Assembly: GCA_032718475.1 (NCBI GenBank)
Contig: JAUCBJ010007703.1
Location: 1-33,852 of the forward strand
Reading direction: 5' to 3'
From: Nemertoderma westbladi
Lineage: Eukaryota > Animalia > Xenacoelomorpha
Length of the DNA stretch: 33,852 nt
Positions 1-33,580 of the stretch are shown piece after piece. The position numbers and the translations under genes are program-made. Within the stretch, counting starts at the first letter, position 1, and each line of letters opens with the position of its first letter. Under the pieces are notes generated by a model. It was given only the letters and a program-made list of their open reading frames with translations. It was not told the DNA's origin and did no database searches.

Positions 1-994
1 CCCGCCGTCTCTCGTCCACCCATTCGACCGCCGAAGCGGGAGTCGCCAACGTTGTAGCGGGCGGACGAGGGACAACGGGAGACAAATCTGGAATATTTCG
101 CTCGCGGTCCAGGACCTGAACTGTCTCTTGGGCAGTTCTGCGGGGCACAGGTAGCTTAGTGCTATGCAGAGGGAATTTAGAGGTAGTTTCAGGGAGCACA
201 TGTGTGTCTATCACCGAAGGGGTGATTTCAAGAACAGGCCTAATTATTTCAGGCTCATCTACTATAGTAGGGAGTCTTTCTACTCTAATTGGGTCTGAAG
301 GCTCAGGATTACTTAGATCTACACTAGCTAGTTGCCTTCTCACGGCTGTAGGCAAATCAGGCAATTTCTGCCGATGTAGCGCCCTTCTACGTCCGTTATA
401 ACGAGATTTATTTCTTCTGCCTTCAGGATCTGTTGTATCTCCTTCATCAGAGGATGTAAATCCCTGTCTCTTGGAAGTAGTCCGACTTATCAGATGCATA
501 TCACTAGCCGTTATCTGCTTATTTAAGTAATCGTGCTTCTCTTGAAGATTCTCCAACTCTAGTTGGACCTTTTCTTCAGATGCCCTCCGTTCCGCTTCTG
601 CCACTGCCATTGCCGCTGCTGCTTTTGCCTTTGCCTCTGCTTCTGCTGCTGCCGCTTTTGCCTTTGCCGCTGCTATTGCTGCTGTCTTTCTGTCTTCTAT
701 CTGTTTTTTCTTCAACTGTTGTTCCCATTCTCTAACGATGCGGATTCTTTCATCAATTTCCGCTCTATTCGCTGCCAACATTTCCGCATCTATTGCGTCC
801 AACACAAACTTGGCTCCTTCGCTATTAGGGTTAAGTCCCTCTAACCTTCTCCTCAATTCGTCATCACCTAAAAAACGTTGATAGTCTGACAGATAGATAT
901 CAATGGCATCCCTCTTATGCGGTTTCTCTGCTGTCGCTTCACTCTCCGTTGTATCTAGTAGACTGTCTGACAGGTTCTGCTTTGCGTCAGACAT
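1..994 (-). CDS. Partial ORF (>=331 codons, runs off the left edge; absent from the ORF track); coiled-coil/Ala-rich then Pro-rich; possible retroelement Gag/ORF1-like protein
   Basis: Manual translation from ATG (complement of 992-994): MSDAKQNLSDSLLDTTESE...IDERIRIVREWEQQLKKKQIEDRKTAAIAAAKAKAAAAEAEAKAKAAAAMAVAEAERRASEEKVQLELENLQEK...VEWVDERRR, no stop to position 1. Intronless. The Gag-like identity is inferred from context only. Confidence 0.55.
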   Translation of the reverse strand, partial: MSDAKQNLSDSLLDTTESEATAEKPHKRDAIDIYLSDYQRFLGDDELRRRLEGLNPNSEGAKFVLDAIDAEMLAANRAEIDERIRIVREWEQQLKKKQIEDRKTAAIAAAKAKAAAAEAEAKAKAAAAMAVAEAERRASEEKVQLELENLQEKHDYLNKQITASDMHLISRTTSKRQGFTSSDEGDTTDPEGRRNKSRYNGRRRALHRQKLPDLPTAVRRQLASVDLSNPEPSDPIRVERLPTIVDEPEIIRPVLEITPSVIDTHVLPETTSKFPLHSTKLPVPRRTAQETVQVLDRERNIPDLSPVVPRPPATTLATPASAVEWVDERRR

Positions 995-1082
995 GTTTGT
1001 GTGTACAGTTGAATGTCTACTGCTGTATTACAGTCTGAGCAAGTCTAGTAACTCAGTATTAACTGATAGCCTAGTAATTAAT

Positions 1083-5677: not shown

Positions 5678-6084
5678 GGAAGGGAATTACAACTCAACCA
5701 CTAGATAAAGCGGCTCTCTTTACTACATTCAGCTATCCCGGGTGGTTGATTGACAGACACTTCTAAGCTTTGATATTTAGCCGCTCTAGGTAGACTTGCA
5801 TTAGGCAAATTCCAAGTGATTTCCTAAAGGTTATTTATTTCCTATTAGGTTCCTATTAGGATCCTATTAGGATCCAATAGGACGTTATTTGAAAGCGTTA
5901 CTGTAATATTGCTCCTCAAAAGAGGTCCCTACTGTACTGCATCAGGGGCACGTTGATAGACACAGGGACAAAGCCCCGTCAGCGGAAACAGCCAGTGTCG
6001 CTAGCGGTGGGGTTGACTTGTTGAAGAGAGAGGCTATTATGAGGTGCAATGACATACGCATTGCGTATCTTCTTCAGTCAACCA

Positions 6085-7378
6085 ATAGGCAGATAGGAGG
6101 CCAGGCCCTATTAGTCTTTTTGTGTTTCAAATTTCACTATGATAAAGATTTGAAGAAAAAAATGAGGAGTGGGCGTGTCATTCGAAAGTGAAACTACAAA
6201 TGCTGTAGCGCCTACACATCATAATATGTGTCATTGTGTAGGGCAGTAGGGCTACAGTACTGAACTGTTGAATAAAGCCTTTACCAATCTGCTGTATACT
6301 GATATTAAGCTGTAAATATAAGCTGACAGGGACTGGACTGTGCAGCTGTGTGTGCGTAACCTCTGTTGCTGTACCGCATACCGGTACAATTCTGCATCGT
6401 GCAGTGCTGCAGTGCAGGCGGCTTATATCTTACTGTACCTACCTGCCTACTGCTGTACTGTCAGACTGTCTCCTAACTCCAGGTCTTACTGTCTTACCGA
6501 ACTGCCTGACTGCTGAACTGTCAGACTGTGCACTGTGTAAGCTAGCCTACCGCTGTGGCTGCAGGGCTGTACCGGTAGGCCTACGCTACATCAATACAGA
6601 TTCTCAGTCTGAGTTTACCTACATACTGCTACTGACTGACATACAGCTCAGGGCAGCAGGGTTATGGATCCTGCACAGGATGATAAACCCAACAGAACTT
6701 CTGGCGATCCGTCCAATCCCCAATCTCCGCAATCCCAATGCCCCACGTCCACGTCGCAAACTCCGGATCTACAGTGTCAATCCCCCAGCGCGCCTTTACT
6801 CGAGGATGTCCGACAAACGGACTCGCCTTTGAACGAGGTTAGGTACCGGTAGCACTTTCAGTTCTTTGTAGTTCTGTAGTTACGAGTTAGGCTCGAGCTG
6901 TCGAGCTTGGTGCTTGTGCTTGGCTGCCGGGTTTCTGGTTACAGGGTTAGGCTCTGCGCTGTGCCTAGCCTATTACTAGCTACTGAGCTATAGCTGTATA
7001 GCCTACGCCTACTGGACTGTTCCAGTCAGCAGCGGTCAGTCGGTAGATGTTATTTTTGATATTATTTCAGTAGGCCCTATTTGGTTTATGATTTCTGGAT
7101 TTACAATTTGGTGTGATTTATTGTAATATGTTTTTATAGACTGATTCTAATCTAATATCAGTAATCTGGTAATACAGTAACAGAGTAATAATAGCTGAAT
7201 AGCTGAATAGGCCTACGCATGGGGTATTGGGTATTTCTCGAATCTCGATCGGGGATCGCGATCGGGGATCGCGATCGGGATATGTAAATTAAATATATAG
7301 GTTAGATATCATATCCGCACCTCTGTCTGGTATTTTCGTTTTGCAAAAATATAACTAACCTATGTTATTGCTGTATTG
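6085..7378. other. Dense cluster of 8-bp insertion scars (5-bp duplication flanking CAG/CTG) in the UBFD1 upstream region and intron 1
   Basis: Exact NNNNN-CWG-NNNNN starting at 6085, 6239, 6402, 6438, 6448, 6457, 6484, 6501, 6517, 6557, 6649, 6869, 6893, 6937, 6978, 6989, 7090, 7161, 7176, 7190, 7198 and 7366. Confidence 0.85.
6664..6837 (+). CDS. UBFD1: UBFD1 exon 1 (low-complexity N-terminus, MDPAQDDKP...SPLNE)
   Basis: ATG at 6664; GAG|gttagg donor at 6838; phase 0 matches exon 2. Not a conserved region, so it is supported by frame and splice signals only. Confidence 0.7.
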
Positions 7379-9258: not shown

Positions 9259-11721
9259 CAGGGATCGTACGGACTGGTGCTTAGATCGTGGCTTTTCCAG
9301 TTAACATTATTCCATAAAACAAGTTATGTGGTTGGAGAAAGCTGCTACTAAGCATAAGCAGCAACCAATCGCGTTAATCCTGTTTAACACAGAGTCAATG
9401 AGAATGGAATATTGCTAACATGAGAAAGTTCAGGTTAACATTATTCCATATCTCAGTATCTGTATTCGCTATTCTATTTATTACTGTATTAGGCCCTACT
9501 CCTACCCTTGCTGGCCTTGTCTGTTTCATTATACAAGTTATATATACCGAAAGCAGTCAGGCAGAACAGTAGGTACAGCAAAGCAAATTATTAAGAATTG
9601 AAGCAACTGCAACAGTAATTAATCTACAGTAGTAGCCAATACCTAATAGATAACAGATTTTGTTAATTCAATACTTTAAGCTTTAAAGGGGCCTTATTAT
9701 TTCTCATGGTAGTTACATGGGAGCAAAAAAACGATTAGAAGACGAAAAAACGAAGGACGATTAAAAATTATTAAAAATTAATGAGACGAGACGGGACGTA
9801 GTGTAGTGGAATGTAATTTATGCGATAAGAAGTACACAACAACCTCTGCGTTATCGAGACACAAACAAAAATTTGATAAAGGAGAACAGACAGCGAAGCG
9901 AAGCGAAACTAAACCATTCATTTTCACGTTGTCCAGCTTGCCAGCACTTCTTTCTGCAACTCGCGTGTCGGGAATGCTACAGCACAGACAATCCTTGGGC
10001 CAATTGAATGGATAGGACAGTATGATGTAGCGTTTGCACGGGTGTAAACACTACGCCGACAACCGTCAACCACTGCCGACAATGTGAAATGTGAAAATGT
10101 AACCTGAGTTCGTAACTCTCGTTTATTGTTTTGGTTAGACTAACCTTCCACTGTAACCTGTTCCTTTCCCTCAATTAATAAATAACATTAATTAGCTTTA
10201 ATAATGGTTGTCGGCGTTGGTTGTGTTATGGCCTAGCATTTAAACTCCGTTTGCACGAAGTCAGTAAGTGGTTGGTATCATAAAAATTCTGTGAATAAAA
10301 CACAACACGAGTTTCAGGGTGATGAACTGATATGTGCTGATGTGAGACCTGTCTGCCTGTATTTTGCCCACTTTGAATATTACTACGTGGCAAAGTACTT
10401 CAATGAGATATTGTATTAGTGCAGTATGTTTATTACTAAACCAGACAATTTGACAGACATTTGCAGTTTACATCATTGTACTGTAATTAAACTAATCCAC
10501 TTATACTACACGCGATCTTATATTATATGCATATATAATGCATATAATATTGCATTATTATAATGATATAATATTATATCATTATATTATTGATATAATA
10601 ATCAATAATTATAATCAATAATAATATAAGCATATATTATGTATCATGCCTGGTATTGTACCATATAATATTATATGGCTTACTCGATTACTAACTGACT
10701 AACACTAGCAGCTTAATTACTGTAATATCTGATTACTTTGGAATAATGGTAACCTGAACTTTTTGAAGTTAGCAATATTCCATTCTCATTGACTCTGTGT
10801 TAAACAGGATTAATGTGATTGGTTGCTGCTTAGTAGCAGCCACTAGCAGGTTTCTCCAACCACATCACTTGTTTTATACAAAATGGAATAATGTTAACTG
10901 AAAAAGCCACGATCTAAGCACCCGTACGGTACTACCGCTACCGCAAATACCACGCTTTTTACTACCGTTACCGCAAATGCCAACTACTACGGTATTTGCG
11001 GTATATAGTTGGTTTTTAGTTTTTTTCTATTTACCGTAGGCAAATTTCCTATTGGGGTGCTGCTTCTGCCTGCCCATTGAATTTATGTTAATTTGATAAT
11101 TGAAAAATAAGTACCTAAGAAATAAAACCTTTACTATAAACTGTGTTTCTAATTTAAGTTGAAGTTCATTGCATATCAATCATTCATGTCTTAACAGGCT
11201 GAAACAGCAGCAATTGTGTTCAAATTATTTGAAATCGGTAAATAATTTTCTAAAATAATAATCCTGATTTCGTATAACTATGAAATTAATAAGATATTAA
11301 ATCATTATGATACGAAAAAATTACGAAACATTTTCATATCATATCGCATTTTCTTAAAATCACATTCATATCATATTGTATCCTTTTTATACGGTACCTT
11401 CAAAAATCACCATATATGCAAAATAACGTTCATCCATCATTGCAGCAGTTATACATTATATATGAAAAATTGATTCGCATTGTAGCGTATTTTCTGTCAA
11501 CAAAAACAAATTAAAATTTATTAATTCAAGAAAACAATTTACCAAAAATAAACGCCACAATTTAAAAAAAAAGTCGTCAAAAAGTGAGCATCTAACTTCA
11601 TTAATCCAGCTAAATTGACCGCATTGATTGCAACTACCGCTACCGCGGTAAATACCACTAACGCAAAGCCATGCCATTACCACTACCGCTACCGTAAAAA
11701 TTGACTACCGTGCGTTCCCTG
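9259..11721. mobile_element. Non-autonomous hAT-like DNA transposon inserted into the minisatellite
   Basis: Termini CAGGGATCGTACGG / CCGTGCGTTCCCTG (14 bp, 2 mismatches); 8-bp flanks AGGAGTAG at 9251-9258 and 11722-11729; subterminal ctaccg repeats. Confidence 0.8.
9276..10922. mobile_element. Long-TIR non-autonomous element (MULE-like) nested at the left end of the hAT element
   Basis: ~170-180 bp imperfect TIRs (9276-9448 vs 10739-10922, starting GGTGCTTAGATCGTGGC); flanks cgtacgg-act (9266-9275) and cgtacggtact (10923-10933) fit a 10-11 bp TSD. Confidence 0.75.
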
Positions 11722-12396: not shown

Positions 12397-12706
12397 TAGC
12401 GCCCTGCCCCTGCAGATAGGAGTAGCGCCCACCCCTGCCTTGGGGTAGCAGATAGGAGTAGCGCCCTCCCCTGCCTTGGGGTAGCAGATAGGAGTAGCGC
12501 CCACCCCTACCTTAGGGTAGCAGATAGGAGTAGCGCCCTCCTCCCCTACCTTAGGGTAGCAGATAGGAGTAGCGCCCACCCCTACCTTAGGGTAGCAGAT
12601 AGGAGTAGCAACCACCCATCCCATACCTTTGGGTAGCAGATAGGAGTAGCACCCACTCTTATCTTCGGGTATCATATAGGAGTAGCGCCCAGCCCTACCT
12701 TCGGGT
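12397..12706. repeat. 36-bp minisatellite, block 3 (~8 copies)
   Basis: Same unit, more diverged. Confidence 0.92.
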
Positions 12707-15165
12707 GATCTTGCGCTGAATGGGCTGCCCCAGGTAAAGAAAATCGTAGACGATATAATAGACGATAAAATCAGCGAGTATCCGACCCCATTAAATATCA
12801 CAGACTTGCAAAGTTTTATGGGGCTGGTCAACCAGCTAGGTTACTTCTCAAGTGAGATTTCAACTACGGCAACACCCCTGCGAGACCTACTACGTGTATG
12901 TACCGCATTTGTATGGACTAGAAACCATGAAGATGCTTTCAACGCCACTAAGGCGGCTCTCGTGAGTCCTCCCGTACTGGCATCATTCGATGCCAGCTTA
13001 CCAACACGCCTCGAGACCGATGCGAGTCGCCTCCATGGACTTGGGTACGATCTACTCCAATGCCATAACGACGACTGGTGGCTTCTCGCATGCGGGAGTA
13101 GATTCCTAAGGGACCCGGAGACACGTTACGCCACTATCGAGTTGGAGTGCATAGCGATACAATACACAATAAAAAAATGCCGTATCTACTTGGCCAGATT
13201 CCGGCATTCACCGTTGTGACAGATCACCGACCACTCCTTGGAATTTTCAACTCGTATAACCTCGACCAAGTCGAGAACAGGAAAATTCAGAAAATGAAAG
13301 CAGAATTACAATCCTGCTACACTTTCACCATTGCCTGGCAGAAGGGGAAGATCCACTGGATTGCTGACGCTTTGAGCCGGGCTCCCGTTGACCTCACTCC
13401 GGACGATCCCGAGGACGAAACGCCACCCATTGTAGCGATGATAGTGGCAAAGCTCCAACAGGAAGAAACTTTGCATTCCTCGGAAGTGGTTAATAAACCC
13501 ACTCAAAGTGCATAACTCGCGCCGGACTCACACGATGAACTCGTGGAGTAACTGCGGGTAGCAGCGCACGAGGATCCGGAATACTGTGAACTCTTGGAGT
13601 GCATACGAACTGGCAACCGTAATGTTCCCACAACGCTGGCAGTGCAGCAATACCGTTAAATTATCTACAACCTGTCGATATACTTCGACCTTGTGTTATA
13701 TGATCCTGCGGAATGTTATGAGTGAATGAATCTGTTATGAGATCCTGTGGAAACTCCACGCTCCCCATCCCATCTCGGAATTACCCGAACTAAACAGCGG
13801 GCTCGCACTACAGTTTACTGGCCTGGAATCAATGCGGACATCGAACGCGCCGTGGGCCATTGCCACGCGTGCCAAGGGTACCTGCCCAGTCTTCCCAAGG
13901 AGACCCTGATGGCAGATGCCATCCCCACGCGTCTCTTTGTGTCAGCTTCCTCGGATCTATTCACCCTCGCGGGTAAACATTTCGTAGTATACACCGCCAG
14001 ACTGCCTGGCTATACCCTGTCGTGTTAGAGTGGCGGAATGACCCCACTGCACAACAGTGCGTCGACGACATATGACGTTTCTTTGTAGACCTCGGGGTCC
14101 CCTACGTTTGGCGTACAGACGGTGGCCCACAATATGCTGCTGATGTATTCCAGCGCTTCCTCAAAGAGTGGGGTGTGCGCTGGGAGGATAGCACGCCACA
14201 CTTCCCTAGCAGCAATGGCCATGCTGAGGCCAGATTTAAAATGCTGCTTAGGAAGGTGCAACACCCTGACATACGCTCTGAAGATTTCCAACGCGGGAGG
14301 TTGGAACTAAGAAACACGCCACGCGCGAATGGGCGATCGCCCAATGAAACGGTGTTTGGACGACGTCTGCGAACTACAATCCCCGCCCACCACAACCATT
14401 ATAAACAACAGTGGCAAGCGGAAGCGGACACAGTGGATAAACGCACGGAAACACAGCGCGGTAGGGCTGTGGAGTTCTATAACCGGTCTGCACATGACCT
14501 CCCTCGCATTGCCGTAGGCGATACGGTCCGCATACAGGACCCCCAGTCCAAAAGGTGGACGCGCATGCCGCATAGGACTGGTAGTGGAGGCTGGCCGGCG
14601 ACGTGATTATCGCGTGAAACTCAATTCTGGCCGGACATGGTGGCGAAACCGCCGCTTCATCAGACGATATCACTCCCCACCACCAGGGGGCGCTTCAAAA
14701 CCTCAGACCAAACCATCATCATCAGATGAACCGGACATACCAAACAATTTCGAAACAGAAAGTAAATCGGCTCTCAGGAAGGCCTATCCCATGCGTCCCA
14801 GTACACTGGCCCAGCGTAAGACAGTGCAGTGCATTGGGACATCAACGACCAAAACGCCACACCATAATGCGTTTCGATCGCGGAGGAAAAAGGGGTGTGA
14901 TATCCAGTTTGGACGGAGGCCTCAATAACTGAGGTGTGCGGCCTGCCCGAGAGACCTGGGATACTATACTGCTGTACTGATGTAATCTTTATTAACTGGG
15001 TACAATACCCTACACCGCAGCACCGGTACACTGGTACTAAACGGCCGCTGCGGCCCTAACTAGGTGGTGGTCCTGGAATATTAATTATTGTTCTATAATA
15101 TACATATATCTTTGTATTGCTCAATATAATGCAGTAAGGACGAATGAGATATTAAACCATTCACA
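12705..15165 (+). mobile_element. 5'-deleted, degenerate Ty3/Gypsy LTR retrotransposon (RT-RNaseH-integrase, PPT, 3' LTR)
   Basis: RT core GDLALNGLPQVKKIVDDII and thumb TDLQSFMGLVNQLG; RNase H LETDAS...ETRYATIELE...TDHRPL...ADALSR; integrase HLGITRTKQRAR..VYWPG..CHAC and STPHFPSSNGHAE. Multiple stops and frameshifts. The RT-RH-INT order is Gypsy-type. Confidence 0.92.
14896..15165 (+). repeat. 3' LTR (270 bp), preceded by a polypurine tract
   Basis: PPT ggaggaaaaagggg at 14882-14895; TGTGA...TCACA inverted ends; ATTAAA at 15151; the minisatellite resumes at 15166. Confidence 0.8.
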
Positions 15166-15283
15166 CAGATATGAGTTGCGCCCTCCTCCCCACACCACCC
15201 CCCCCCCCCCCCCCCCCCCCCCTACCGTCGGATAGCATATAGGAGTAGCTCCCACCCCGACCTTCGGGTAGCAGATATGAGTA
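15166..15283. repeat. 36-bp minisatellite, block 4 (degenerate, with a poly-C run)
   Basis: cagatatgagttgcgccc...ccttcgggtagcagat. Confidence 0.75.
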
Positions 15284-15866: not shown

Positions 15867-16070
15867 CAACCCGCGAACCATTGTGCCAGCAGACAGCCCA
15901 TCGCAAGGTCCTCGACAAACATCCCCTCCCTCCAGATTGTCCCCCCGGCATTACCGGTGTTCACGAACTCTTGCCTCACGTTCCTCTCAGCGGAATGATT
16001 AATAAAACCGGAGGGAAAGTCCGACTCACATTCAAGTTAGAGTTGGATCAGCTATGGATAGGAACCAAAG
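15867..16070 (+). CDS. UBFD1: UBFD1 exon 4
   Basis: tcctttccag|CA acceptor; REPLCQQTAHRKVLDK...VPLSGMINKTGGKVRLTFKLELDQLWIGTK matches recalled UBFD1 KEPLCRQKQHRKVLDK...VPLSGMYNKSGGKVRLTFKLEQDQLWIGTK; AAG|gtgagt donor, phase 1. Confidence 0.95.
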
Positions 16071-19000
16071 GTGAGTTAGAGTTGGATCAGCTAATAGGAA
16101 CCAAAGGTGAGTTAGAGTTGGATCAGCTGTGGATATGAACCAAAGGTGAGTTAGAGTTGGATCAGCTATGGATAGGAACCAAAGGTGAGTTAGAGTTGGA
16201 TCAGCTGTGGATAGGAACCAAAGAGTTGGATCAGCTGTGGATAGGAACCAAAGGTGAGTCCGGGTTGGATCAGCTATGGATAGGAACCAAAGGTGAGTTA
16301 GAGTTGGATCAGCTAATAGGAACCAAAGGTGAGTTAGAGTTGGATCAGCTATGGATAGGAACCAAAGGTGAGTTAGAGTTGGATCAGCTATGGATAGGAA
16401 CCAAAGGTGAGTTAGAGTTGGATCAGCTGTGGATAGGAACCAAAGGTGAGTTAGAGTTGGATCAGCTGTGGATATGAACCAAAGGTGAGTTAGAGTTGGA
16501 TCAGCTATGGATAGGAACCAAAGGTGAGTCCGAGTTGGATCAGCTATGGATAGGAACCAAAGGTGAGTCCGAGTTGGATCAGCTGTGGATAGGAACCAAA
16601 GGTGAGTTAGAGTTGGATCAGCTAATAGGAACCAAAGGTGAGTTTGAGTTGGATCAGCTGTGGATAGGAACCAAAGGTGAGTCCGAGTTGGATCAGCTAT
16701 GGATAGGAACCAAAGGTGAGTCCGAGTTGGATCAGCTATGGATAGGAACCAAAGGTGAGTTAGAGTTGGATCAGCTAATAGGAACCAAAGGTGAGTTAGA
16801 GTTGGATCAGCTATGGATATGAACCAAAGGTGAGTTAGAGTTGGATCAGCTATGGATAGGAACCAAAGGTGAGTTAGAGTTGGATCAGCTAATAGGAACC
16901 AAAGGTGAGTTAGAGTTGGATCAGCTGTGGATAGGAACCAAAGGTGAGTTAGAGTTGGATCAGCTAATAGGAACCAAAGGTGAGTTAGAGTTGGATCAGC
17001 TAATAGGAACCAAAGGTGAGTTAGAGTTGGATCAGCTATGGATATGAACCAAAGGTGAGTTAGAGTTGGATCAGCTATGGATAGGAACCAAAGGTGAGTT
17101 AGAGTTGGATCAGCTAATAGGAACCAAAGGTGAGTTAGAGTTGGATCAGCTGTGGATAGGAACCAAAGGTGAGTCCGAGTTGGATCAGCTATGGATAGGA
17201 ACCAAAGGTGAGTCCGAGTTGGATCAGCTATGGATAGGAACCAAAGGTGAGTTAGAGTTGGATCAGCTAATAGGAACCAAAGGTGAGTTAGAGTTGGATC
17301 AGCTAATAGGAACCAAAGGTGAGTTAGAGTTGGATCAGCTATGGATATGAACCAAAGGTGAGTTAGAGTTGGATCAGCTATGGATAGGAACCAAAGGTGA
17401 GTTAGAGTTGGATCAGCTAATAGGAACCAAAGGTGAGTTAGAGTTGGATTAGCTAATAGGAACCAAAGGTGAGTTAGAGTTGGATCAGCTAATAGGAACC
17501 AAAGGTGAGTTAGAGTTGGATCAGCTAATAGGAACCAAAGGTGAGTTAGAGTTGGATCAGCTAATAGGAACCAAAGGTGAGTTAGAGTTGGATCAGCTAT
17601 GGATATGAACCAAAGGTGAGTTAGAGTTGGATCAGCTATGGATAGGAACCAAAGGTGAGTCCGAGTTGGATCAGCTATGGATATGAACCAAAGGTGAGTT
17701 AGAGTTGGATCAGCTATGGATAGGAACCAAAGGTGAGTTAGAGTTGGATCAGCTAATAGGAACCAAAGGTGAGTTAGAGTTGGATCAGCTGTGGATAGGA
17801 ACCAAAGGTGAGTCCGAGTTGGATCAGCTATGGATAGGAACCAAAGGTGAGTCCGAGTTGGATCAGCTATGGATAGGAACCAAAGGTGAGTTAGAGTTGG
17901 ATCAGCTAATAGGAACCAAAGGTGAGTTAGAGTTGGATCAGCTAATAGGAACCAAAGGTGAGTTAGAGTTGGATCAGCTATGGATATGAACCAAAGGTGA
18001 GTTAGAGTTGGATCAGCTATGGATAGGAACCAAAGGTGAGTTAGAGTTGGATAAGCTAATAGGAACCAAAGGTGAGTTAGAGTTGGATCAGCTAATAGGA
18101 ACCAAAGGTGAGTTAGAGTTGGATCAGCTAATAGGAACCAAAGGTGAGTTAGAGTTGGATCAGCTATGGATAGGAACCAAAGGTGAGTTAGAGTTGGATC
18201 AGCTATGGATAGGAACCAAAGGTGAGTTAGAGTTGGATCAGCTATGGATAGGAACCAAAGGTGAGTTAGAGTTGGATCAGCTATGGATAGGAACCAAAGG
18301 TGAGTCCGAGTTGGATCAGCTATGGATAGGAACCAAAGGTGAGTCCGAGTTGGATCAGCTATGGATAGGAACCAAAGGTGAGTTAGAGTTGGATCAGCAA
18401 ATAGGAACCAAAGGTGAGTTAGAGTTGGATCAGCTAATAGGAACCAAAGGTGAGTTAGAGTTGGATCAGCTATGGATAGGAACCAAAGGTGAGTTAGAGT
18501 TGGATCAGCTATGGATAGGAACCAAAGGATCAGCTATGGATAGGAACCAAAGGTGAGTTAGAGTTGGATCAGCTATGGATAGGAACCAAAGGATCAGCTA
18601 TGGATAGGAACCAAAGGTGAGTTAGAGTTGGATCAGCTAATAGGAACCAAAGGTGAGTTAGAGTTGGATCAGCTAATAGGAACCAAAGGTGAGTTAGAGT
18701 TGGATCAGCTATGGATAGGAACCAAAGGTGAGTTAGAGTTGGATCAGCTAATAGGAACCAAAGGTGAGTCCGAGTTGGATCAGCTATGGATAGGAACCAA
18801 AGGTGAGTTAGAGTTGGATCAACTATGGATAGGAACCAAAGGTGAGTTAGAGTTGGATCAGCTAATAGGAACCAAAGTTGAGTTAGAGTTGGATCAGCTA
18901 TGGATAGGAACCAAAGGTGAGTTAGAGTTGGATCAGCTATGGATAGGAACCAAAGTTGAGTTAGAGTTGGATCAGCTAATAGGAACCAAAAGTGAGTTAG

Positions 19001-22000
19001 AGTTGGATCAGCTAATAGGAACCAAAGGTGAGTCCGAGTTGGATCAGCTATGGATAGGAACCAAAGGTGAGTCCGAGTTGGATCAGCTGTGGATAGGAAC
19101 CAAAGTTGAGTCCGAGTTGGATCAGCTATGGATAGGAACCAATGGTGAGTTAGAGTTGGATCAGCTAATAGGAACCAAAGGTGAGTCCGAGTTGGATCAG
19201 CTATGGATAGGAACCAAAGGTGAGTCCGAGTTGGATCAGCTAATAGGAACCAAAGGTGAGTTAGAGTTGGATCAGCTAATAGGAACCAAAGGTGAGTCCG
19301 AGTTGGATCAGCTATGGATAGGAACCAAAGGTGAGTCCGAGTTGGATCAGCTATGGATAGGAACCAAAGGTGAGTCCGAGTTGGATCAGCTATGGATAGG
19401 AACCAAAGGTGAGTCCGAGTTGGATCAGCTGTGGATAGGAACCAAAGGTGAGTTAGAGTTGGATCAGCTAATAGGAACCAAAGGTGAGTTAGAGTTGGAT
19501 CAGCTAATAGGAACCAAAGGTGAGTTAGAGTTGGATCAGCTGTGGATAGGAACCAAAGGTGAGTCCGAGTTGGATCAGCTATGGATAGGAACCAAAGGTG
19601 AGTCCGAGTTGGATCAGCTAATAGGAACCAAAGGTGAGTTAGAGTTGGATCAGCTGTGGATAGGAACCAAAGGTGAGTCCGAGTTGGATCAGCTATGGAT
19701 AGGAACCAAAGGTGAGTTAGAGTTGGATAAGCTAATAGGAACCAAAGGTGAGTTAGAGTTGGATCAGCTAATAGGAACCAAAGGTGAGTTAGAGTTGGAT
19801 CAGCTATGGATAGGAACCAAAGGTGAGTCCGAGTTGGATCAGCTAATAGGAACCAAAGGTGAGTTAGAGTTAGATCAGCTAATAGGAACCAAAGGTGAGT
19901 CCGAGTTGGATCAGCTATGGATAGGAACCAAAGGTGAGTCCGAGTTGGATCAGCTATGGATAGGAACCAAAGGTGAGTTAGAGTTGGATCAGCTAATAGG
20001 AACCAAAGGTGAGTTAGAGTTGGATCAGCTGTGGATAGGAACCAAAGGTGAGTCCGAGTTGGATCAGCTATGGATAGGAACCAAAGGTGAGTTAGAGTTG
20101 TTCAGCTAATAGGAACCAAAGGTGAGTTAGAGTTGGATCAGCTAATAGGAACCAAAGGTGAGTTAGAGTTGGATCAGCTATGGATAGGAACCAAAGGTGA
20201 GTCCGAGTTGGATCAGCTAATAGGAACCAAAGGTGAGTTAGAGTTGGATCAGCTATGGATAGGAACCAAAGGTGAGTCCGAGTTGGATCAGTTGCGGATA
20301 GGAACCAAAGGTGAGTCCGAGTTGGATCAGCTATGGATAGGAACCAAAGGTGAGTCCGAGTTGGATCAGCTATGGATAGGAACCAAAGGTGAGTCCGAGT
20401 TGGATCAGCTATGGATAGGAACCAAAGGTGAGTTAGAGTTGGATCAGCTAATAGGAACCAAAGGTGAGTTAGGTAAGGTCCGATTATTTAGAGCATCAGT
20501 AGTTCCAGTACTCCTCTACGGGAGTCCATGCTGGGCTCTAACTGCTGAGGACACCAAATCTCTGGATGGCACATTCACAAGAATGCTACGCCGGGTTCAT
20601 TGTATCAAGTACAATGCACACATCTCCAACCAGACACTATATAACATTGGAGGTGTCTCATTGGTTCCCCCAAGCTTGACACTAGAACAAAATCGCCTCC
20701 GCTTTGCAGGACATTGCTTTCGCCGTGAGGACCAGCCAGTGCATAATCTTGTACTTTGGCAGCCTCATGGAGTGAATAAGCATGGTGGACAGCCCATGAC
20801 TTTCTTGAGACGCATCTTAAAGGACACTGGCCTTAAAGATGCGGATGATCTAGCAAATGTCATGGGTGATAGGGAGTTGTGGCGGTGCAATTTTGTTGAC
20901 AAGCCGGCACATCATTCTTAAAAATGCAGCTGCAATGCAGCATGCCGATCCTAGTAGTAGTAGTACCAAAGGTGAGTTAGAGTTGGATCAGCTAATAGGA
21001 ACCAAAGGTGAGTTAGAGTTGGATCAGCTATGGATAGGAACCAAAGGTGAGTTAGAGTTGGATCAGCTATGGATAGGAACCAAAGGTGAGTTAGAGTTGG
21101 ATCAGCTAATAGGAACCAAAGGTGAGTTAGAGTTGGATCAGCTGTGGATAGGAACCAAAGGTGAGTCCGAGTTGGATCAGCTATGGATATGAACCAAAGG
21201 TGAGTCCGAGTTGGATCAGCTGTGGATAGGAACCAAACGTGAGTTAGAGTTGGATCAGCTAATAGGAACCAAAGGTGAGTTAGAGTTGGATCAGCTATGG
21301 ATAGGAACCAAAGGTGAGTTAGAGTTGGATCAGCTATGGATAGGAACCAAAGGTGAGTTAGAGTTGGATCAGCTTTGGATAGGAACCAAAGGTGAGTTAG
21401 AGTTGGATCAGCTGTGGATAGGAACCAAAGGTGAGTCCGAGTTGGATCAGCTATGGATAGGAACCAAAGGTGAGTTAGAGTTGGATCAGCTATGGATAGG
21501 AACCAAAGGTGAGTCCGAGTTGGATCAGCTATGGATAGGAACCAAAGGTGAGTTAGAGTTGGATCAGCTATGGATAGGAACCAAAGGTGAGTTAGAGTTG
21601 GATCAGCTATGGATAGGAACCAAAGGTGAGTTAGAGTTGGATCAGCTATGGATAGGAACCAAAGGTGAGTTAGAGTTGGATCAGCTATGGATAGGAACCA
21701 AAGGTGAGTTAGGGTTGGATCAGCAAATAGGAACCAAAGGTGAGTTAGAGTTGGATCAGTTGCGGATAGGAACCAAAGGTGAGTCCGAGTTGGATCAGCT
21801 ATGGATAGGAACCAAAGGTGAGTTAGAGTTGGATCAGCTGTGGATAGGAACCAAAGGTGAGTTAGAGTTGGATCAGCTAATAGGAACCAAAGGTGAGTCC
21901 GAGTTGGATCAGTTGCGGATAGGAACCAAAGGTGAGTTAGAGTTGGATCAGCTGTGGATAGGAACCAAAGGTGAGTTAGAGTTAGATCAGCTATGGATAG

Positions 22001-22397
22001 GAACCAAAGGTGAGTTAGAGTTGGATCAGCTAATAGGAACCAAAGGTGAGTTAGAGTTGGATCAGCTATGGATAGGAACCAAAGGTGAGTTAGAGTTGGA
22101 TCAGCTATGGATAGGAACCAAAGGTGAGTTAGAGTTGGATCAGCTAATAGGAACCAAAGGTGAGTTAGAGTTGGATCAGCTAATAGGAACCAAAGGTGAG
22201 TCCGAGTTGGATCAGCTATGGATAGGAACCAAAGGTGAGTTAGAGTTGGATCAGCTGTGGATAGGAACCAAAGGTGAGTTAGAGTTGGATCAGCTGTGGA
22301 TATGAACCAAAGGTGAGTTAGAGTTGGATCAGCTGTGGATAGGAACCAAAGGTGAGTCCGAGTTGGATCAGTTGCGGATAGGAACCAAAGGTGAGTT
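16035..22397 (+). repeat. 39/36-bp tandem array (~150 units) of the UBFD1 exon-4 end plus its 5' splice site
   Basis: Unit agttagagttggatcagcta(tgg)ataggaaccaaag|gtg equals exon nt 16035-16070 plus the intron start. The last unit continues as gtgagttcgcg... into unique intron sequence. Confidence 0.97.
20473..20964 (+). mobile_element. 5'-truncated non-LTR retrotransposon (RTE-like), 492 bp
   Basis: Uninterrupted ORF C-terminus (VPVLLYGSPCW...FTRMLRR...RLRFAGHCFR...DRELWR; stop 20921), short 3' UTR, (TAG)n tail at 20952-20964; 16-bp TSD accaaaggtgagttag at 20457-20472 and 20965-20980. Confidence 0.88.
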
Positions 22398-24957: not shown

Positions 24958-26383
24958 TACGTACGTGTCTCAAAGTATCATTTTACAGTTTGCTTATCGG
25001 AGAGTTTGGTAACATGAACGAAGGTAGTGAGTGAGTGGAGATAAAGCTGCGAGGATTAAACACTGTAAAGTACTTTGTAACACGTACATGCAGATAGTTT
25101 TGTTCCAAAATTGTAATATTACTAAACGTCTATTTATAATAAATAAAATAAAAACTTTTGTTCTTAATAATTTGGTGAAATTTCTCAAATTTTATAATAT
25201 GTATTTGTATTATATAGCAGCAACTAAGTAGAAAACGCTCTTTAAGATTTCATCACTATGCCAAAAGTTAGTAAAGTTTAGCTATTGCAGTTGCCTGTAC
25301 AATAATGTTATTCATGTTAATATTCAATGATAACAATTAGGGATGCGACAGAGCTAAAATTTCATCCGGAGCCCGGAGGTTCCTCCGGGTTACAATATGA
25401 GCTCCGTCCGGAGACGGAGCCGGAGGTTTGGTGATTGATAATTCCAGTGTATTATTTAGGGATGTCCCGGAATCGATATTTTGATTCCGGCCGGAACCGG
25501 AACCGGAATTCAACATGCCGGAATATTCCGGCCGGAATTCCGGCCGGAATTCCGGCCGGAACCGGAATTTTCTATAATTAGTGACCTACACTAAATGACC
25601 CATGAAACTTTATAATTTTTTCTGAAACAGATGAATTTTTTTAAATTTCTACAGCTAAGTTTGATAATGAGATGAATCAGAACCTTGGGGGGAATGAAGG
25701 TGGGTGGAATGGAGAATGGGCTGGGTCGTTATGGCCGTTTATGGGGACGGGATGGTACTTCGGCATTGGACTACAAGGAATTTAATATATTTTTTTTTCT
25801 AAAATCTATAACATTGTCTAAAAGTTAGGTTTTTAGCATTTAGACTCACCTAAAAACCTACGTTAACCAAAAATCGATGGTTTCGCATCATTGGGTCCTT
25901 TGCTGCAATATTCTGGTGTCTTTAAGGGAAAGGAACATGTTACCGTGACATGTTATTCGAACCAAAACAATAAACGAGGCCAATAGTACATGTTACAGTT
26001 TAATTACTACTATATTATGCAGTACCTACGACGCAGGACTGAACTAACGACCACTCGCAGGACCTGTACGTATTGTAATAACGTTTATATTAGTTTTAGG
26101 TTAGAGTAGGAATTGTAATTGTGTAATACTGTATTTGTAACCAAGTAACATAAAGGACCCCCATGGAAATAAGCTGCAAATCTTTACTGGCAATCCTATA
26201 TGTTACGTTGGACAATACCAATCATAATATTATCATATTATTTAATAATTCAAAATTCAAAGTAAAATAATATAAAATCAATGTGAAATAATTTAAATTC
26301 AATGTCAAATAATGTAAAATCAATCTAAAAACGTCATTTTATAAGCAAATTGTAATAATTAAATTGGAAAAACCACCCGCTAA

Positions 26384-26712
26384 GGCCCGTGCTCCACTGG
26401 TAAGTCTTATGTAGTCTTAGTCAAATAAATTATGGAACACATTGGTTTCAATGTTACCGTCTCCAATGGTAAATCGTAAGTTACGACTGTGATTATGTCC
26501 CATGTTCCATCTTTTGACATATGAATCATGTGATATATCCGGCAAGATGCCTCTGATTGGCTACTTTGGGTATAAATATGCAGTAAATGTGAGACGCATC
26601 TTATATTTTTTATTAAATTGTGTTACCAATGGAGCAAAGAGGCATTCATTTTGACATTCTGACTAAGACAAAATATGAAAACGACTTACGACTTACCAGT
26701 GGAGCACGGGCC
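26384..26712. mobile_element. PIF/Harbinger (Tourist-like) MITE, 329 bp, innermost of the nest
   Basis: 23-bp perfect TIR GGCCCGTGCTCCACTGGTAAGTC; TAA TSD on both sides. Confidence 0.88.
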
Positions 26713-26959
26713 TAATGATGCATTTCATAAAATATCTTCAGAACGACAAATTGTTTAACGTAAATTAAGGGGGTTATTGTGAATTGTATATGAATACTAC
26801 AGTAGGTGGTGTAATAGATGAGTGGGACCATTTTAGTTTGATTACCAGGTGACATTTTTTTGGAAATGTGTTACATATGTGATATAACCATCAAGACTAA
26901 ATTCACTTTAATAAACAGGGTGGCTATGAATTTTCCCTCGTTACATAGGTTAGTTAGGT

Positions 26960-27150
26960 TCCACCTTGGTGTAGTGGTTGCATTGATTTCCAATCTATCT
27001 GGAGGTTGTGGGTTCGATCCCTGCATGTGGGCGTAGGCAGTTTTTGATTCGATACGAATGGTTTGAATGGGCCTAACCAGGGGGCATCTATGCCTTGCAT
27101 CTTTAAATGTTAGCTCTAACGGTCGAAGAAAACTTTATTTCTACTTTTTT
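26960..27150 (+). mobile_element. Probable tRNA-derived SINE fragment
   Basis: A-box-like tggtgtagtgg (~26967) and B-box ggttcgatccc (27011), with no full cloverleaf; T-rich end. Confidence 0.4.
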
Positions 27151-29989
27151 ACAAGTGTTGATCCACTGTTGAAAAGCATCTTAAAATAATAATTGGTAAT
27201 AATGTTTAAAAAATATATAACTGTTTTTTAAATAAATATTATTTATAAATTTATTATTATTTATTATTATAAATTTAACAAACTAATTGCAACTATCAAA
27301 CTAGTTAGGAACCTGGTAATTCCGGTAAAATTCCGGCCGGAATTGACCCCATTCCGGCAATTCCGGCCGGAACCGGAATCCGGCAAAAACCGCCGGAATT
27401 CCGGCCGGAACGGAATTCCGGGACATCCCTAGTATTATTATAGTAGACATATAGACAGATATACGTTCATGAAACGGGGGGGGGGGGGGGGGGGGAGAGA
27501 TTTGATGCGATTTTATACAAATGAACAGAGATTTGATGCGATTTTATACAAATGAACAGTACCAGCCTGTTGGGGATGGGGGGGGGGGGGGGGGGGGTCA
27601 GTGGAATGGGGGTTCTAGACTGACGAACGAAATGATAGTACATGTATTTTTTAATAAATTATATTATATTAAATTAAATTTAAATATATTTTTTAATTAG
27701 GGATGGGATGATTATAAATTGAATTAACTGAATCATTTCAATGTTTTTGTTCAAACATTTAAACAATTTCACAAGGGGGGTGGGTTATCAGGAAACTTAA
27801 AAAAAACAACCTGTAAATTACTTAATGAGTTATTATGTTAATTACTATGATATTTACATTACATTATTCATACATCAGAAAAACTTATTATTTTAATTCA
27901 AATTTCAACAATATAAGCTCCAAATTGGCTCCGGGTTAATTTGCCCGGAGCCGGAACCAGAGCCGGAACCAAAAAATTAGCCCGGAGCTCTGTCGCATCC
28001 CTAATAACATTAGCACTTTGCACATATATAGGATAGGGGGAAGGAAAGCAATTCGTTTCGAAAAGTATCAGTTTCATTTTATTGTAGTTCTCTGTAAGTT
28101 CTACCTTACTGCACTTAAATATTCAACTGTCTTATAAAAATACTCATTTAAAGATATAATTTGCTATTTAATATCTCGCTGTTTAAGGACGTTAATGTTG
28201 AATTTTTGAATAACAATAATTTACATCATGGTGTTCTAACTTGCACCTTATATAAGATTACTCCTGGATCGGTTTGGCATACGGTGGTGCTGAAAATGTT
28301 TAAATATTTAAATATGAAAAAAATAAGTTGGTGAATATATTTCTGACTTATAAATTAATTATATTTTTCAACACCTTTCAAGATTACTGTATCTGTTGTT
28401 GACTCTTGCTGTAATTCTATAAATATGTTAAGTTTTACTTTTTACACCATTTCGTAAATTATTTTGTTAGTAAATAAATCCCTTCTTACGCTACAAACTA
28501 TATCGTTTTATCGAAACCTTTCCCTATAATGAAATTTATTATTGAATTTATGTTTTTCACGTGGTGCGACACTATTACAATATATATTTAATGGTACTGG
28601 CTTTCAATTTTTTCATAAAACAACAAACATGGCTGTTTTTCCGTTCGACTGTCGGTCTGTCCGTCAGTATATCCCCCAAAACAATAGAAAGCATACCGGT
28701 ACTATCTGTCTAAAAAATGCCTATATAGGTTTTTCTTTGTCGGTGACTTTATTTCTGATGTTATTATTCAAATTTGGCCTCGTCGTTTCTGTCTGTATGC
28801 CTGTCAGACTTTCTGTCAAAATTTAACCGATAGCCCTACAACCAGACAAATAATTTGATTGTCATCAAATATGAAAACTGACACTAGAAATTAAATATAC
28901 GACCAGGAAAACCCCTAAACTTTTAGCTAGCTAGTTTGTCCTTCTCATATATTTTGACGGACAGACTGTCGGACAGTCAGGTAGACCGACAGTCAGTCAT
29001 ACAGACAGACTAGATTCCATTAAAAGTGAATTCTGACCTCAGAAATGAAATCAGCGCTCCGGAAAAACCCCCATTACAAAAATCATAGCATGGTGGTGTG
29101 CTTTCTTGTTGCTAGATATATAGGCCTATTATTGACAGACATTCTTTTATACTAACAGACAGTTTTTTTCTCAAATGACGTAAATACCTTTTCTACTTCG
29201 ATAATCTTTCATCACATTTAATAAAATTGAAGATGTTTTATATTTTTTTTACAATTTCTAATTTTGCACTATATCTTCTGCATTTTTCACCGGGCAATAA
29301 AGTGTGGTGATGATGATTTTTTAAGATGTTCTGTTCTGCTTCCATCTTTTATCGATTGATGTTAGTATATTAATTTAATTATTCCCCTATAATATCACAC
29401 TTTTTTCTGCTGTAGTCGTTTATTGTAATGTTTCAGTTTTGGAATAAAACTATATACAGTACCTCCCTAGATCATTGAGCTGTAATATAGTTTACAGGGT
29501 TTTGAGCCCAATGTTGATATCACAAATCTACTATACTAATCGCTACCGGTAGTTGTAAAGCTACTTACACCGGTAGCTACTTTACAAAAAAGTGTGGGGC
29601 GAGCGACGAAAGTAAGCGAGCTTAGCATACATTCTGTCGTGTCCAATTTTAAACGTTAATAACTCAGCCAAATGTTAATGAAATTTAACCAAACTTGGTA
29701 CACATGAGTCTGGCCAAAGTTTAGAAATTTTCCAAGTTAAATTTGCGTGGGGTCTTCGTGCAGCATCTGTGTAACTGTCTTACGGTTATAATAAACCAAA
29801 AAAAAAATATAAAAAAAAAAAAATAGTCTACCCAAAAATTATTAGGATCAGCTGGTTGCTAGGAGACTACAGGATTACCATACGGTACCAGGCCATGACA
29901 GTACCGGTACTGTTAATAGTTACAGTGGTACAGAGTTACCGGTACCGTCTTCAGGTCGTTGGCAAGGCCATCTAAACAACTTCATCTAA

Positions 29990-30500
29990 ACAGCTTCCGA
30001 CAGTCCGATGTATCTGGACCCGAGCAGCCGAGTGGCATCAAGATGCGATTAACCGAGGAATAAATACTACGGAATTGCTTGCTTGTCAGTAAGATTCTAT
30101 TTACTACACTGGGAATACGGCGGTCGGTCGGATCGTAATGCGGGCCACTGCCAAGTTCCTCATGCCTCACTCAGGCCACCCACCTTGGAGTGCGGTGGGA
30201 AGAGTCCGACTTACGTCGACGACTGGACGAATCGACGAGGATTGCGATTTCGGTTTAGCGGCGGCCCGGACAGCCGGATCCTGGGATCGCCTGGGGGAAA
30301 TTGTTGAAAGTCGGGCAGACGTGTATCGCACCGGATTACGTTCTCTGCCACGCGAAAGTGTGAGGCGAATTCGTTGTCGAATTGGGTCGGAAGCTGCGGG
30401 AATTCTACTGTTCTACGGGAATAAACCGCAGCTGTCCGGTGACTACGGACGGATACTGGGATGAGCAGGTATTTCGATCGAGTTTCTCGTATTCTCGATT
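29990..30500 (+). pseudogene. Aldehyde dehydrogenase family 3 (ALDH3-like) pseudogene fragment
   Basis: Stitched across frames: LPMYLDP...TTELLACQ*DSIYYTGNTAVGRIVMRATAKFL...[46 protein letters not shown]...LREFYGNKPQLSGDYGRI. This is colinear with ALDH3 motifs ([26 protein letters not shown]). In-frame stops and frameshifts are present. Confidence 0.9.
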
Positions 30501-31467
30501 TTCTGAATTCTCGATATTTCCTATAAACCACATGGCTTCGCATATTGAACGTGTGATTGGAAATAAGTTTATGCTACCCTTCCGCCCCTTGGGTGGTAGA
30601 TGTCGCGGTTATGTATTGGTTGGTAGGAAGGGGGGGGGGGGGGGGGGGGGGGTGCAGATTAAAAGGGCTGAACACGTACTGTCCCCCTTTCTTTGATTGA
30701 TTGTCGGTATGGTTAAATTTCTCAAATACTGATTTTGTGATACAGTCACTCAATTTTAATTTGTATCTCATAACTGGGCCTCGTCCTGCGCGAAGGCCCC
30801 ACGAACGTGTTTTATAGATCCAAAACAATAATTGGTACCAGCATGTGTGATGGTTGCATGAGTTACCATGAGGCTTATTGATATTTCATTAGTGCGCTAA
30901 GACTGGAGATGTTTACTGTGGAAGATCACATGCATTACTTGGCCTAACGAGCCTAAAAGATTCTCACATTCATTAGTGGCCAACTTGTTGCAGAATAGAA
31001 GCACCATATGGAATTCATCTGCTACAGATATATGCAGTTAAAATTAGTTACCTATTAATATTAGATAAATAATATTCAGCGATATTCAGGTCCCAATCAA
31101 TTAAAGTTGACATTTTAGTTAACAAAATATCGTTGTGCATGATTTACAAAGGCAGTAAACGATATTTTATTATCCGCGTTTTATTAATAATTACCAAATT
31201 AATTTAGATCACCACGGAAAAAAAGCAGTAAACTATATAATATTTTGTTATTATAATAATTAATTAATTACGTGCTTAATTTAACAATTGAATTAATTGT
31301 TAAGATTATGAGCAACTTCAGACAACGACAGGGTTCGCATCCCTTGCAAAATCAGCGTTATTTTGAATATGAAATGTATTACTTTTCGAAGAATTAAACA
31401 GTTATTTATTATCAATAATTACTGAACTCTTGTTGGTATATTTTATAGACACTATCCTTTCATTTTT

Positions 31468-32097: not shown

Positions 32098-33580
32098 ATG
32101 ATGCGAATACAGCAGTTAGCTTTCCGATCGAAAGGAAACAGGATGACTTCCCGGAGACCATCTTCCTCTGTCGCTGCCTTGGAGATGCCACCTTGCGACT
32201 TCCAACCTCAACCATACACCTCAATGGGAAAGAAGGAATCCCTACAACACCGTAGCAAAGTTCTTCATCCATTCAGCGTCAAATACTACAAGGACGCCAG
32301 TAATGCTGCATCAGGGGCACAAACAGTGGCTTTATGATACGGAAGGGAAACGGTACTTGGATATGTTGTCTGCAATGGTGTCTGCCGGTTGCGGTCATTG
32401 TCATCCGAAACTAAATGCCGCGCTAGAGAGCCAACTCAAGAAATTATGGCACACAACGTTCATTTACATGAATGACACTCAACAGGAATACGGGACGAAG
32501 TTACTGGCAAAGTTTCCTGACAGTTTGGATGTTGCAATACTTGTCAACAGCGGCGCAGAAGCAAATGAATTAGCGATTGCCATGTCGCGGATGTACACTG
32601 GAGCTTGGGATATTCTGAGTTTGCGAAATAGTTTCCACGGTGTCGGTGTTCAGACGTCAGGTATGACACAAATGGGTACGTGGAAGCTACAGATGCCGTT
32701 GGGGTTCGGTCATGTATCATCGATGAATGCGGACCCATACCGGGGACCTTGGGGCGGGAGTAACTGCAGGGATTCTCCCTCGCAAACAACTCGACTATGC
32801 GACTGCAAGGAAGGAAGTTGCTTCGCAAAGGAAATGTATGTGGATCAATACAAGGATACCCTGCGCTACTCGGTACCTAAAAAAGTAGCTGCGTTTTTCG
32901 CCGAGCCCATACAAGGCGCTGGAGGAACTGTGCAATACCCTAGAGGATTTCTGAAAGAGATTTACCAATTGACGAGGGAACGAGGAGGTCTGTGTGTTTC
33001 CGATGAAGTCCAGACAGGATTCGGAAGACTCGGAAGTCATTTTTGGGGGTTTGAAAGCCACGGTGTTGTTCCCGATATTGTGACTATGGCTAAAGGGATT
33101 GGCAATGGTTTCCCCATGGCTGCGGTAGTCACTCGCAAAGAAATCGCACAGACACTCTCAAATTCGTTGTGGTTCAACACTTTCGGCGGTAATCCACTTG
33201 CCTGCTCTGTTGGATCCGCTACTCTTGATGTCATCGCTGAAGAAAAATTGCAGGACAATAGCGATGTAGTTGGAACCTATTTTATAAATAGGTTGGCCCA
33301 CCTGAGAGATAAGTACCCCATAATAGGCGATGTGAGAGGAAAAGGTTTAATGATAGGCCTCGAGTTAGTCGAAGATAAGGAAACTAGGACGCCTCTAGCA
33401 GCCGAAAAGTTTGCAAACATTTGGGAGGAAACTCGCGAGATGGGCGTTCTATTCGGAAGGGGGGGAATTTATGGGAACGTATTCCGGATAAAACCTCCTC
33501 TTTGTGTTACTAATGATGATATTGACTTTACTGTGAATGTTTTAGAAAGAGCGATCAGCAAAGCTGTAAATAAACATTAA
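32098..33580 (+). CDS. AGXT2: Alanine--glyoxylate aminotransferase 2 (class III PLP aminotransferase), intronless, with one +1 frameshift at ~32293-32296
   Basis: ORF 32303-33580 has GHCHPK, VNSGAEANE, RGPWGGSNCRDSP, AEPIQG, DEVQTGFGRLGSHFWGF and the PLP-lysine motif DIVTMAKGIGNG. The upstream frame (32098) has an Arg/Ser-rich presequence-like stretch and the AGXT2-typical MPPCDF. Removing 1 nt gives 493 aa. Confidence 0.92.

Follow-up and report, generated by a model that had tools for sequence, protein, structure and literature searches.

The class 3 aldehyde dehydrogenase (ALDH3) fragment in this DNA has been struck repeatedly by 8-base insertions of one stereotyped form, and these insertions are probably the excision footprints of a putative cut-and-paste DNA transposon. 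Each consists of a CAG or CTG trinucleotide (CWG) and a duplication of 5 bases, so that the trinucleotide stands between two copies of the same 5-mer. Six exact N5-CWG-N5 motifs start at positions 29996, 30020, 30218, 30266, 30276, and 30403 of the window (the whole stretch of 33,852 nt that was analyzed), where the original prediction had placed them, whereas 500 dinucleotide shuffles of the region from 29990 to 30465 contained 0.008 motifs on average and never more than one. The accompanying claim, that each motif represents a genuine gain and not a chance occurrence, was upheld both by protein homology and by sister copies of the fragment, which provide empty and filled forms. These gains are exact, polarized, and recurrent.

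The fragment (29993 to 30500, forward strand) corresponds approximately to residues 150 to 300 of the enzyme. Its top PDB match is human fatty aldehyde dehydrogenase (4qgk; E values of 1.4e-7 and 1.3e-6), and the class 3 enzyme 1ad3 is also among the matches; the best sequence match and the catalytic motif GQTCxAPDY both place it in class 3. The segment 30411 to 30500, queried alone, gave no PDB match, and a copy from Nemertoderma westbladi was not among the results of two ALDH searches. For the comparison at the DNA level, we used contigs of four public DNA runs (X1 to X4), representing three samples from three studies. In X1, the summed contig depth over the fragment is about 1e4 to 8e4, compared with 22 to 27 for long contigs of the same run, summed depth being no measure of copy number; single X3 contigs reach depths of 756 to 1371. 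Read safely, these values mean that the fragment is present in hundreds of copies. It had been described as an ALDH3 pseudogene, and a broken class 3 ALDH it is, but as a high-copy repeat and not as a single pseudogene. Sister copies carry on into more ALDH3 upstream of 29993, where loose contig ends are found. Other loose ends, at 30122, provide 30 letters whose translation, FDYIFYTGNT, belongs to a more intact ALDH3 in which ACACT occurs once, and are the only glimpse of the intact parent gene.

The insertions were assessed against protein homologues in two ways. A frameshift-aware alignment, blind to the motif and run with two profiles (the first largely of prokaryote type), covered 30066 to 30499 and placed 11 extra bases at 30156, 16 at 30270, and 2 at 30462; at 30218 the excess was 16 bases, or 13 with the second profile, and at 30403 to 30409 it was 11 with the first profile and 8 with the second. 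Distances between conserved anchors were also counted in 102 of 105 fetched homologues, namely, those with the GQTC motif. Between TLE and WGK, a segment spanning the motifs at 30218, 30266, and 30276, the excess was 32 nt in 25 of 40 scorable homologues, 29 in 14, and 26 in 1, and between GQTC and FYG, which brackets TTCTA-CTG-TTCTA (30403 to 30415), it was 8 nt in all 17 homologues. CCGGA-CAG-CCGGA (30266 to 30278) and GGATC-CTG-GGATC (30276 to 30288) account jointly for 16 bases in the motif-blind alignment. The motifs at 30266, 30276, and 30403 are therefore gains of 8 bases each. Stretches of the fragment free of motifs show an excess of 0 compared with the ALDH homologues. Judged from protein homology, the single 5-mer is the ancestral state.

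The proposal that deleting 8 bp at each motif restores the ALDH3 reading thus holds at these three sites. It fails at 30218, where GACGA-CTG-GACGA is followed by a second 8-base gain, GACGA-ATC-GACGA, and both alignment and anchor counts require the removal of 16 bases (30218 to 30238); a single X4 loose end lacking the motif is shorter by 10 bases and not by 8. Protein support is weaker at 29996 and 30020 because further lesions adjoin them. Removing TCCGA-CAG-TCCGA (29996 to 30008) yields LPMYLD, to be compared with human IPQYLD, and across CCGAG-CAG-CCGAG (30020 to 30032) the distance from YLD to TELL exceeds that of both scorable homologues by 7 nt. The near match signaled at 30451 is present as a copy with one mismatch (30451 to 30463), but it represents no clean gain of 8: the net excess relative to protein is 2 bases (in 4 of 5 homologues at 30462), and some sister copies carry 3 bases more here. 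Finally, the lesion that had been set apart as not fitting the motif, around 30165 to 30180, was recovered as an excess of 11 bases at 30156 to 30182 (29 of 29 homologues) with no exact motif; it includes CCTCA-TG-CCTCA, possibly a trimmed scar.

The sister copies provide empty and filled DNA pairs in both directions and in all three samples. The motif at 30266 is missing from many of them, its 8 bases being left out in six contigs of X1, one of X2, one of X3, and four of X4. Conversely, at 30106, 30182, and 30209 the window holds a single 5-mer within an intact ALDH3 reading. The empty ACACT at 30106 to 30110 (reading YYTG) is filled as ACACT-CAG-ACACT by an insert after 30105 in an X3 contig (depth, 910), as well as in an X1 loose end (2 contigs). 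ACTTA at 30209 to 30213 (PTY) becomes ACTTA-CTG-ACTTA through inserts after 30207 in X2, X3 (depth, 1371 of 1444), and X4. At ACCTT (30182 to 30186, TLE), a sister subfamily has the filled ACCTT-CAG-ACCTT, visible as an X1 joint that steps from 30186 back to 30182 with CAG in between (depth, 107). A single X3 loose end of 8 letters fits the empty form at 30403, and for 29996, 30020, and 30276 the empty DNA form was not seen among the sister-copy rows listed.

Among the 12 indel rows listed, out of 19, there are four 8-base indels; these represent three distinct events, all three of which obey the motif rule, and the joint at 30182 to 30186 is a fourth such event among the sister copies. By comparison, inserting a random 8-mer generates the motif in 0.04% of trials. 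The off-rule indels in the same 12 of 19 rows are -4, -15, -1, +1, -25, +3, and a +4/+4 pair, which may be one 8-base gain without CWG. A pattern scan of metagenome contigs for the cargo found no match. Over the 390 bp from 29993 to 30383, the window differs from the three dominant X3 contigs, which may belong to different subfamilies, by three motif events and about 22 substitutions.

These comparisons bear on one alternative, that ordinary slippage or tandem duplication, or else an error of assembly, created the repeats. Small duplications do occur in the same hot spots, where repeats with a spacer of 0 number 7 against 2 expected. However, the spacer matches the flank in just 2 of 40 sites, both within one double scar, and plain tandem duplication was rejected on this count; a library artefact was likewise rejected, as the three samples, which come from three studies, share the same filled and empty forms, with depths in the hundreds to thousands. 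We consider this alternative largely refuted, with hardly any likelihood left to it.

In the window as a whole there are 37 N5-CWG-N5 motifs, 23 of them between 6085 and 7378. The length of the arms is remarkably constrained: with the 39-bp satellite left out, CWG spacers are flanked by 5-base arms 37 times, by 4-base arms 5 times, and by 6-base arms never. With CAC/GTG as the control spacer, the corresponding region outside the satellite yields eight cases with 4-base arms and none with 5-base arms, so that CWG with 4-base arms does not rise above the control (5 versus 8). Spacers of 4 or 6 bases occur at chance level. Trimmed spacers (CA, TG, and CG) are found 5 times versus about 0.4 expected, an excess to which we give little weight because longer repeats in shifted register account for some of them. 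The arms are diverse (37 distinct 5-mers across 40 sites), the spacer is constant, and it occurs in both orientations (CAG in 16 sites and CTG in 24). It is the reverse complement of the arm, as hairpin P nucleotides would be, in only 4 of the 40 sites, and this origin was rejected. Since the spacer is neither a copy of the flank nor a reverse complement of the arm, it originates outside the site. The arms show a bias of twofold symmetry, with A or C at base 2 in 30 of 40 sites and G or T at base 4 in 28 of 40, a feature chosen post hoc in a set that draws 23 of its 40 sites from one 1.3-kb region; the symmetry is kept in the CAG set, in the CTG set, and after all sites are oriented by CAG.

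An abortive retro-insertion could also bring in bases from outside: an endonuclease would make a 5-nt staggered cut, and the last three bases of a template (CAG/CTG) would be copied into it. No excision is necessary under such a scheme, which would also account for the absence of a full element. Truncated retro-copies are of variable length. The lengths observed here are fixed at 5 and 3, with spacers of 4 or 6 bases at chance, and the target bias stays symmetric after orientation by CAG; both argue against retro-insertion, which we regard as improbable.

The densest group of motifs, the 23 between 6085 and 7378, surrounds the first coding exon of a UBFD1-like gene, an intron-containing gene with the Pfam domains ubiquitin and PH_UBFD1_C. 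This exon (6664 to 6838), inferred from its ATG, open frame, and GT donor site and giving no Pfam match itself, contains no motif versus 3.3 expected (p of approximately 0.04), while the DNA on both sides is crowded with them. Motifs are likewise absent from exon 2 of the same gene and from an AGXT2 frame. With one gene as the basis, this distribution fits a purging of frameshifts and insertions that favor 5' or open DNA. The double scar, AATAG-CTG-AATAG-CTG-AATAG, lies in this region at 7190 to 7210 and suggests that one target was visited twice. A 6.4-kb array of 39-bp units (16035 to 22397) separates two exons encoding the C-terminal domain of UBFD1.

Several other features of the window deserve mention. 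With satellites left out, TACCGGTA is found 15 times and TAGGCCTA 8 times, where 0.45 and 0.38 are expected, mainly at 1000 to 2000, 6000 to 7100, and 29540 to 29950; they form a second scar-like class, possibly the TA-targeted footprints of other elements. A hAT-like element that ends in CAGGG...CCCTG and has a duplication of 8 bp (9259 to 11721) sits inside a 36-bp satellite and contains five N5-CWG-N5 motifs, as well as a weak C2H2/BED zinc finger frame (9785 to 10012). Nested MITEs were read from the sequence at 25345 to 28003, 25459 to 27432, and 26380 to 26715, two having TAGGGATG ends with apparent 8-bp duplications and one having GGCCC ends. A decayed Gypsy-type pol region extends from 12700 to 15170, with motifs at 14967 and 15013 in its LTR-like end. 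The AGXT2 frame (32147 to 33580) is intact and intronless, representing either a retrocopy or an intron-free gene; its best relatives are 62 to 64% identical, the best named ones being from marine invertebrates, and in a quick tree of 54 rows it forms a long, unplaced branch among animals. At the start of the window, from which it runs off, a 342-codon open frame (2 to 1027, minus strand) encodes a coiled coil with no firm Pfam match.

The repeat that carries the ALDH3 fragment may itself be a mobile element. A very high-copy module at 30656 to 30815, possibly the end of the carrier, combines a hairpin with a T run; its summed depth rises to 4.8e5, and X1 contigs exit from it into unrelated flanks at 30810 (73 contigs) and 30811 (54 contigs). 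The hairpin is weak (z of -2.0; 8 of 200 shuffles fold equally well). The left module has loose ends with a GTCY-like microsatellite. An 18-nt inverted match joins 29746 to 29763 with 30786, and a 7-nt GTGGGGC match lies near 29593; these ends are not fixed. The main ALDH3 family lacks the left flank of this copy (X3 depth of 19 at 29864 to 29907), which makes the identity of the carrier uncertain. Nonautonomous Helentrons (HINE/DINE-1), as described in the available parts of PMC4067079 and PMC7492417, have comparable high-copy terminal modules, a GTCY-like microsatellite in the left module, and a hairpin by a T run; here the terminal hairpin adjoins the T run and the microsatellite is present, while the 18-nt and 7-nt matches are candidates for the 11- to 15-bp subTIRs at both ends but form no clean pair. 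We would give an even chance to the carrier being a Helentron-type (HINE-like) repeat.

We propose that the scars arise as follows. A DNA transposon with predicted termini CAG...CTG would insert via a 5-bp staggered cut, duplicating its target, with a weakly palindromic preference of the form N-M-N-K-N. Upon excision, the nontransferred strands would be cut 3 nt inside each end, leaving a 3' CAG overhang on each flank. End joining would pair the two overhangs across an A:A mismatch that resolves to CAG or CTG, which would account for the observed gain of exactly 8 bases per site, a frameshift wherever the DNA is coding. Amplified as the cargo of a repeat, the ALDH3 fragment would have been struck repeatedly before and during its spread, so that its lineages differ by their scars. 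All four steps (insertion, excision, the CAG ends, and the 3-nt cut) are what we infer. A twofold symmetric arm bias is the expectation for a dimeric transposase, and the frequent occurrence of both CAG and CTG, together with symmetric arms, is what would result if two 3' CAG overhangs were joined end to end.

The 33,852-nt window contains no element that combines CAG...CTG ends with a 5-bp duplication, and none of the 56 window open frames of at least 75 amino acids contains a transposase domain. No terminus of the CAG...CTG type occurs among the displayed loose ends of the sister-copy contigs, and a search with the element-end pattern returned two matches in metagenome contigs (one of which is GC rich and looks unrelated) and none in viral contigs. 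No description of a CWG core combined with a 5-bp duplication was found in the literature covered, whose scope did not extend to Repbase entries and subscription papers; the portions available of PMC4455052, PMC5753468, PMC9587614, and PMC6004678 have no added bearing on the scar.

The element could instead belong to a known 5-bp family, either hAT5 or a relative of Transib/CMCT, that makes its first nick 3 nt into the element, so that CAG would be the loop of a flank hairpin and would outlast repair. This would be a special case of the excision footprint with other chemistry. The available text of PMC12730594 describes 5-bp duplications for hAT5 and CA..TG ends as common to CMCT families, and Transib targets (cCASTGg and GC rich, according to the part available of PMC1131882) resemble the arms in their bias and the sites in their local GC content (0.46 versus 0.40). 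The window also contains the hAT-like element with CAGGG ends at 9259 to 11721, but its duplication is of 8 bp and not 5. Moreover, hAT and Transib cuts, as far as PMC8151067 was available, fall flush with the element or 1 nt outside it and give variable, flank-derived footprints, against which stand the flank-derived spacers in only 4 of 40 sites; the absence of CAC/GTG with 5-base arms speaks against Transib-type ends. We therefore regard a known 5-bp family as rather doubtful. For excision by a transposase of the proposed kind, we tentatively suggest, at somewhat less than even likelihood, that a Transib/RAG-like 5-bp stagger is combined with a Sleeping Beauty-like, hairpin-free cut 3 nt inside the ends and that scarring rivals point mutation at favored loci. 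The scars represent about 15% of the noncoding DNA around the UBFD1 first exon, and in the ALDH3 fragment they stand in the ratio of events to substitutions given above.

Footprints record the cutting mode of a transposase. The scar predicts an element whose stagger and end cut are not paired in the families described in the literature found, and it provides a search key, namely, CAG...CTG ends with a 5-bp duplication. Stereotyped frameshifting insertions accumulate in 5' gene regions and in repeat cargo and are absent from coding exons. Since each scar is self-identifying and polarized, scars can order the amplified ALDH3 lineages, and they could map past transposon visits genome-wide.

The scar shares features with several known footprints and differs from each. 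Transib/RAG elements also duplicate 5 bp, and some families share a palindromic, CA-N-TG-like, GC-rich target taste; unlike the CAG/CTG bases retained here, Transib ends are CAC, with positions 1 to 3 invariant (PMC1131882, in the part available). Both Transib and hAT elements break DNA via flank hairpins, according to the accessible text of PMC8151067, whereas P bases are seen in only 4 of 40 sites here. Among the hAT elements, hAT5 duplicates 5 bp in animals (PMC12730594, as far as available), and the window contains hAT-like elements that end in CAGGG or TAGGG; described hAT footprints are variable and flank derived, and no account of how hAT5 ends or of its footprints was found. The known 5-bp families thus fit the scars poorly. 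NuwaI, of the PHIS superfamily, shares the letters CWG and an animal host, but in the portion available of PMC4482050 it has GGG ends and duplicates CWG as its target, whereas the empty sites at 30106, 30182, and 30209 have no CWG, and it was rejected. In Sleeping Beauty, a cut of the nontransferred strand inside the element leaves a C(A/T)G core at TA (PMC3878927 and PMC8151067, both in part). The Tc1/mariner elements Sleeping Beauty and Frog Prince resemble our scars in the fixed CAG/CTG core between two target copies and in its explanation by a cut a few bases into the element, which leaves 3' overhangs for end joining, as the same partial sources present it; here, too, the core is fixed, independent of the flank, and found in either orientation. 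A TA-targeting Tc1 element was rejected, because the entire 5-mer is present once in the empty sites, with 37 different 5-mers in 40 sites, and the scar sites show no TA duplication. The two footprints therefore differ in their target, which is TA in Sleeping Beauty and Frog Prince (a gain of 5 bases) and a variable 5-mer here (a gain of 8).
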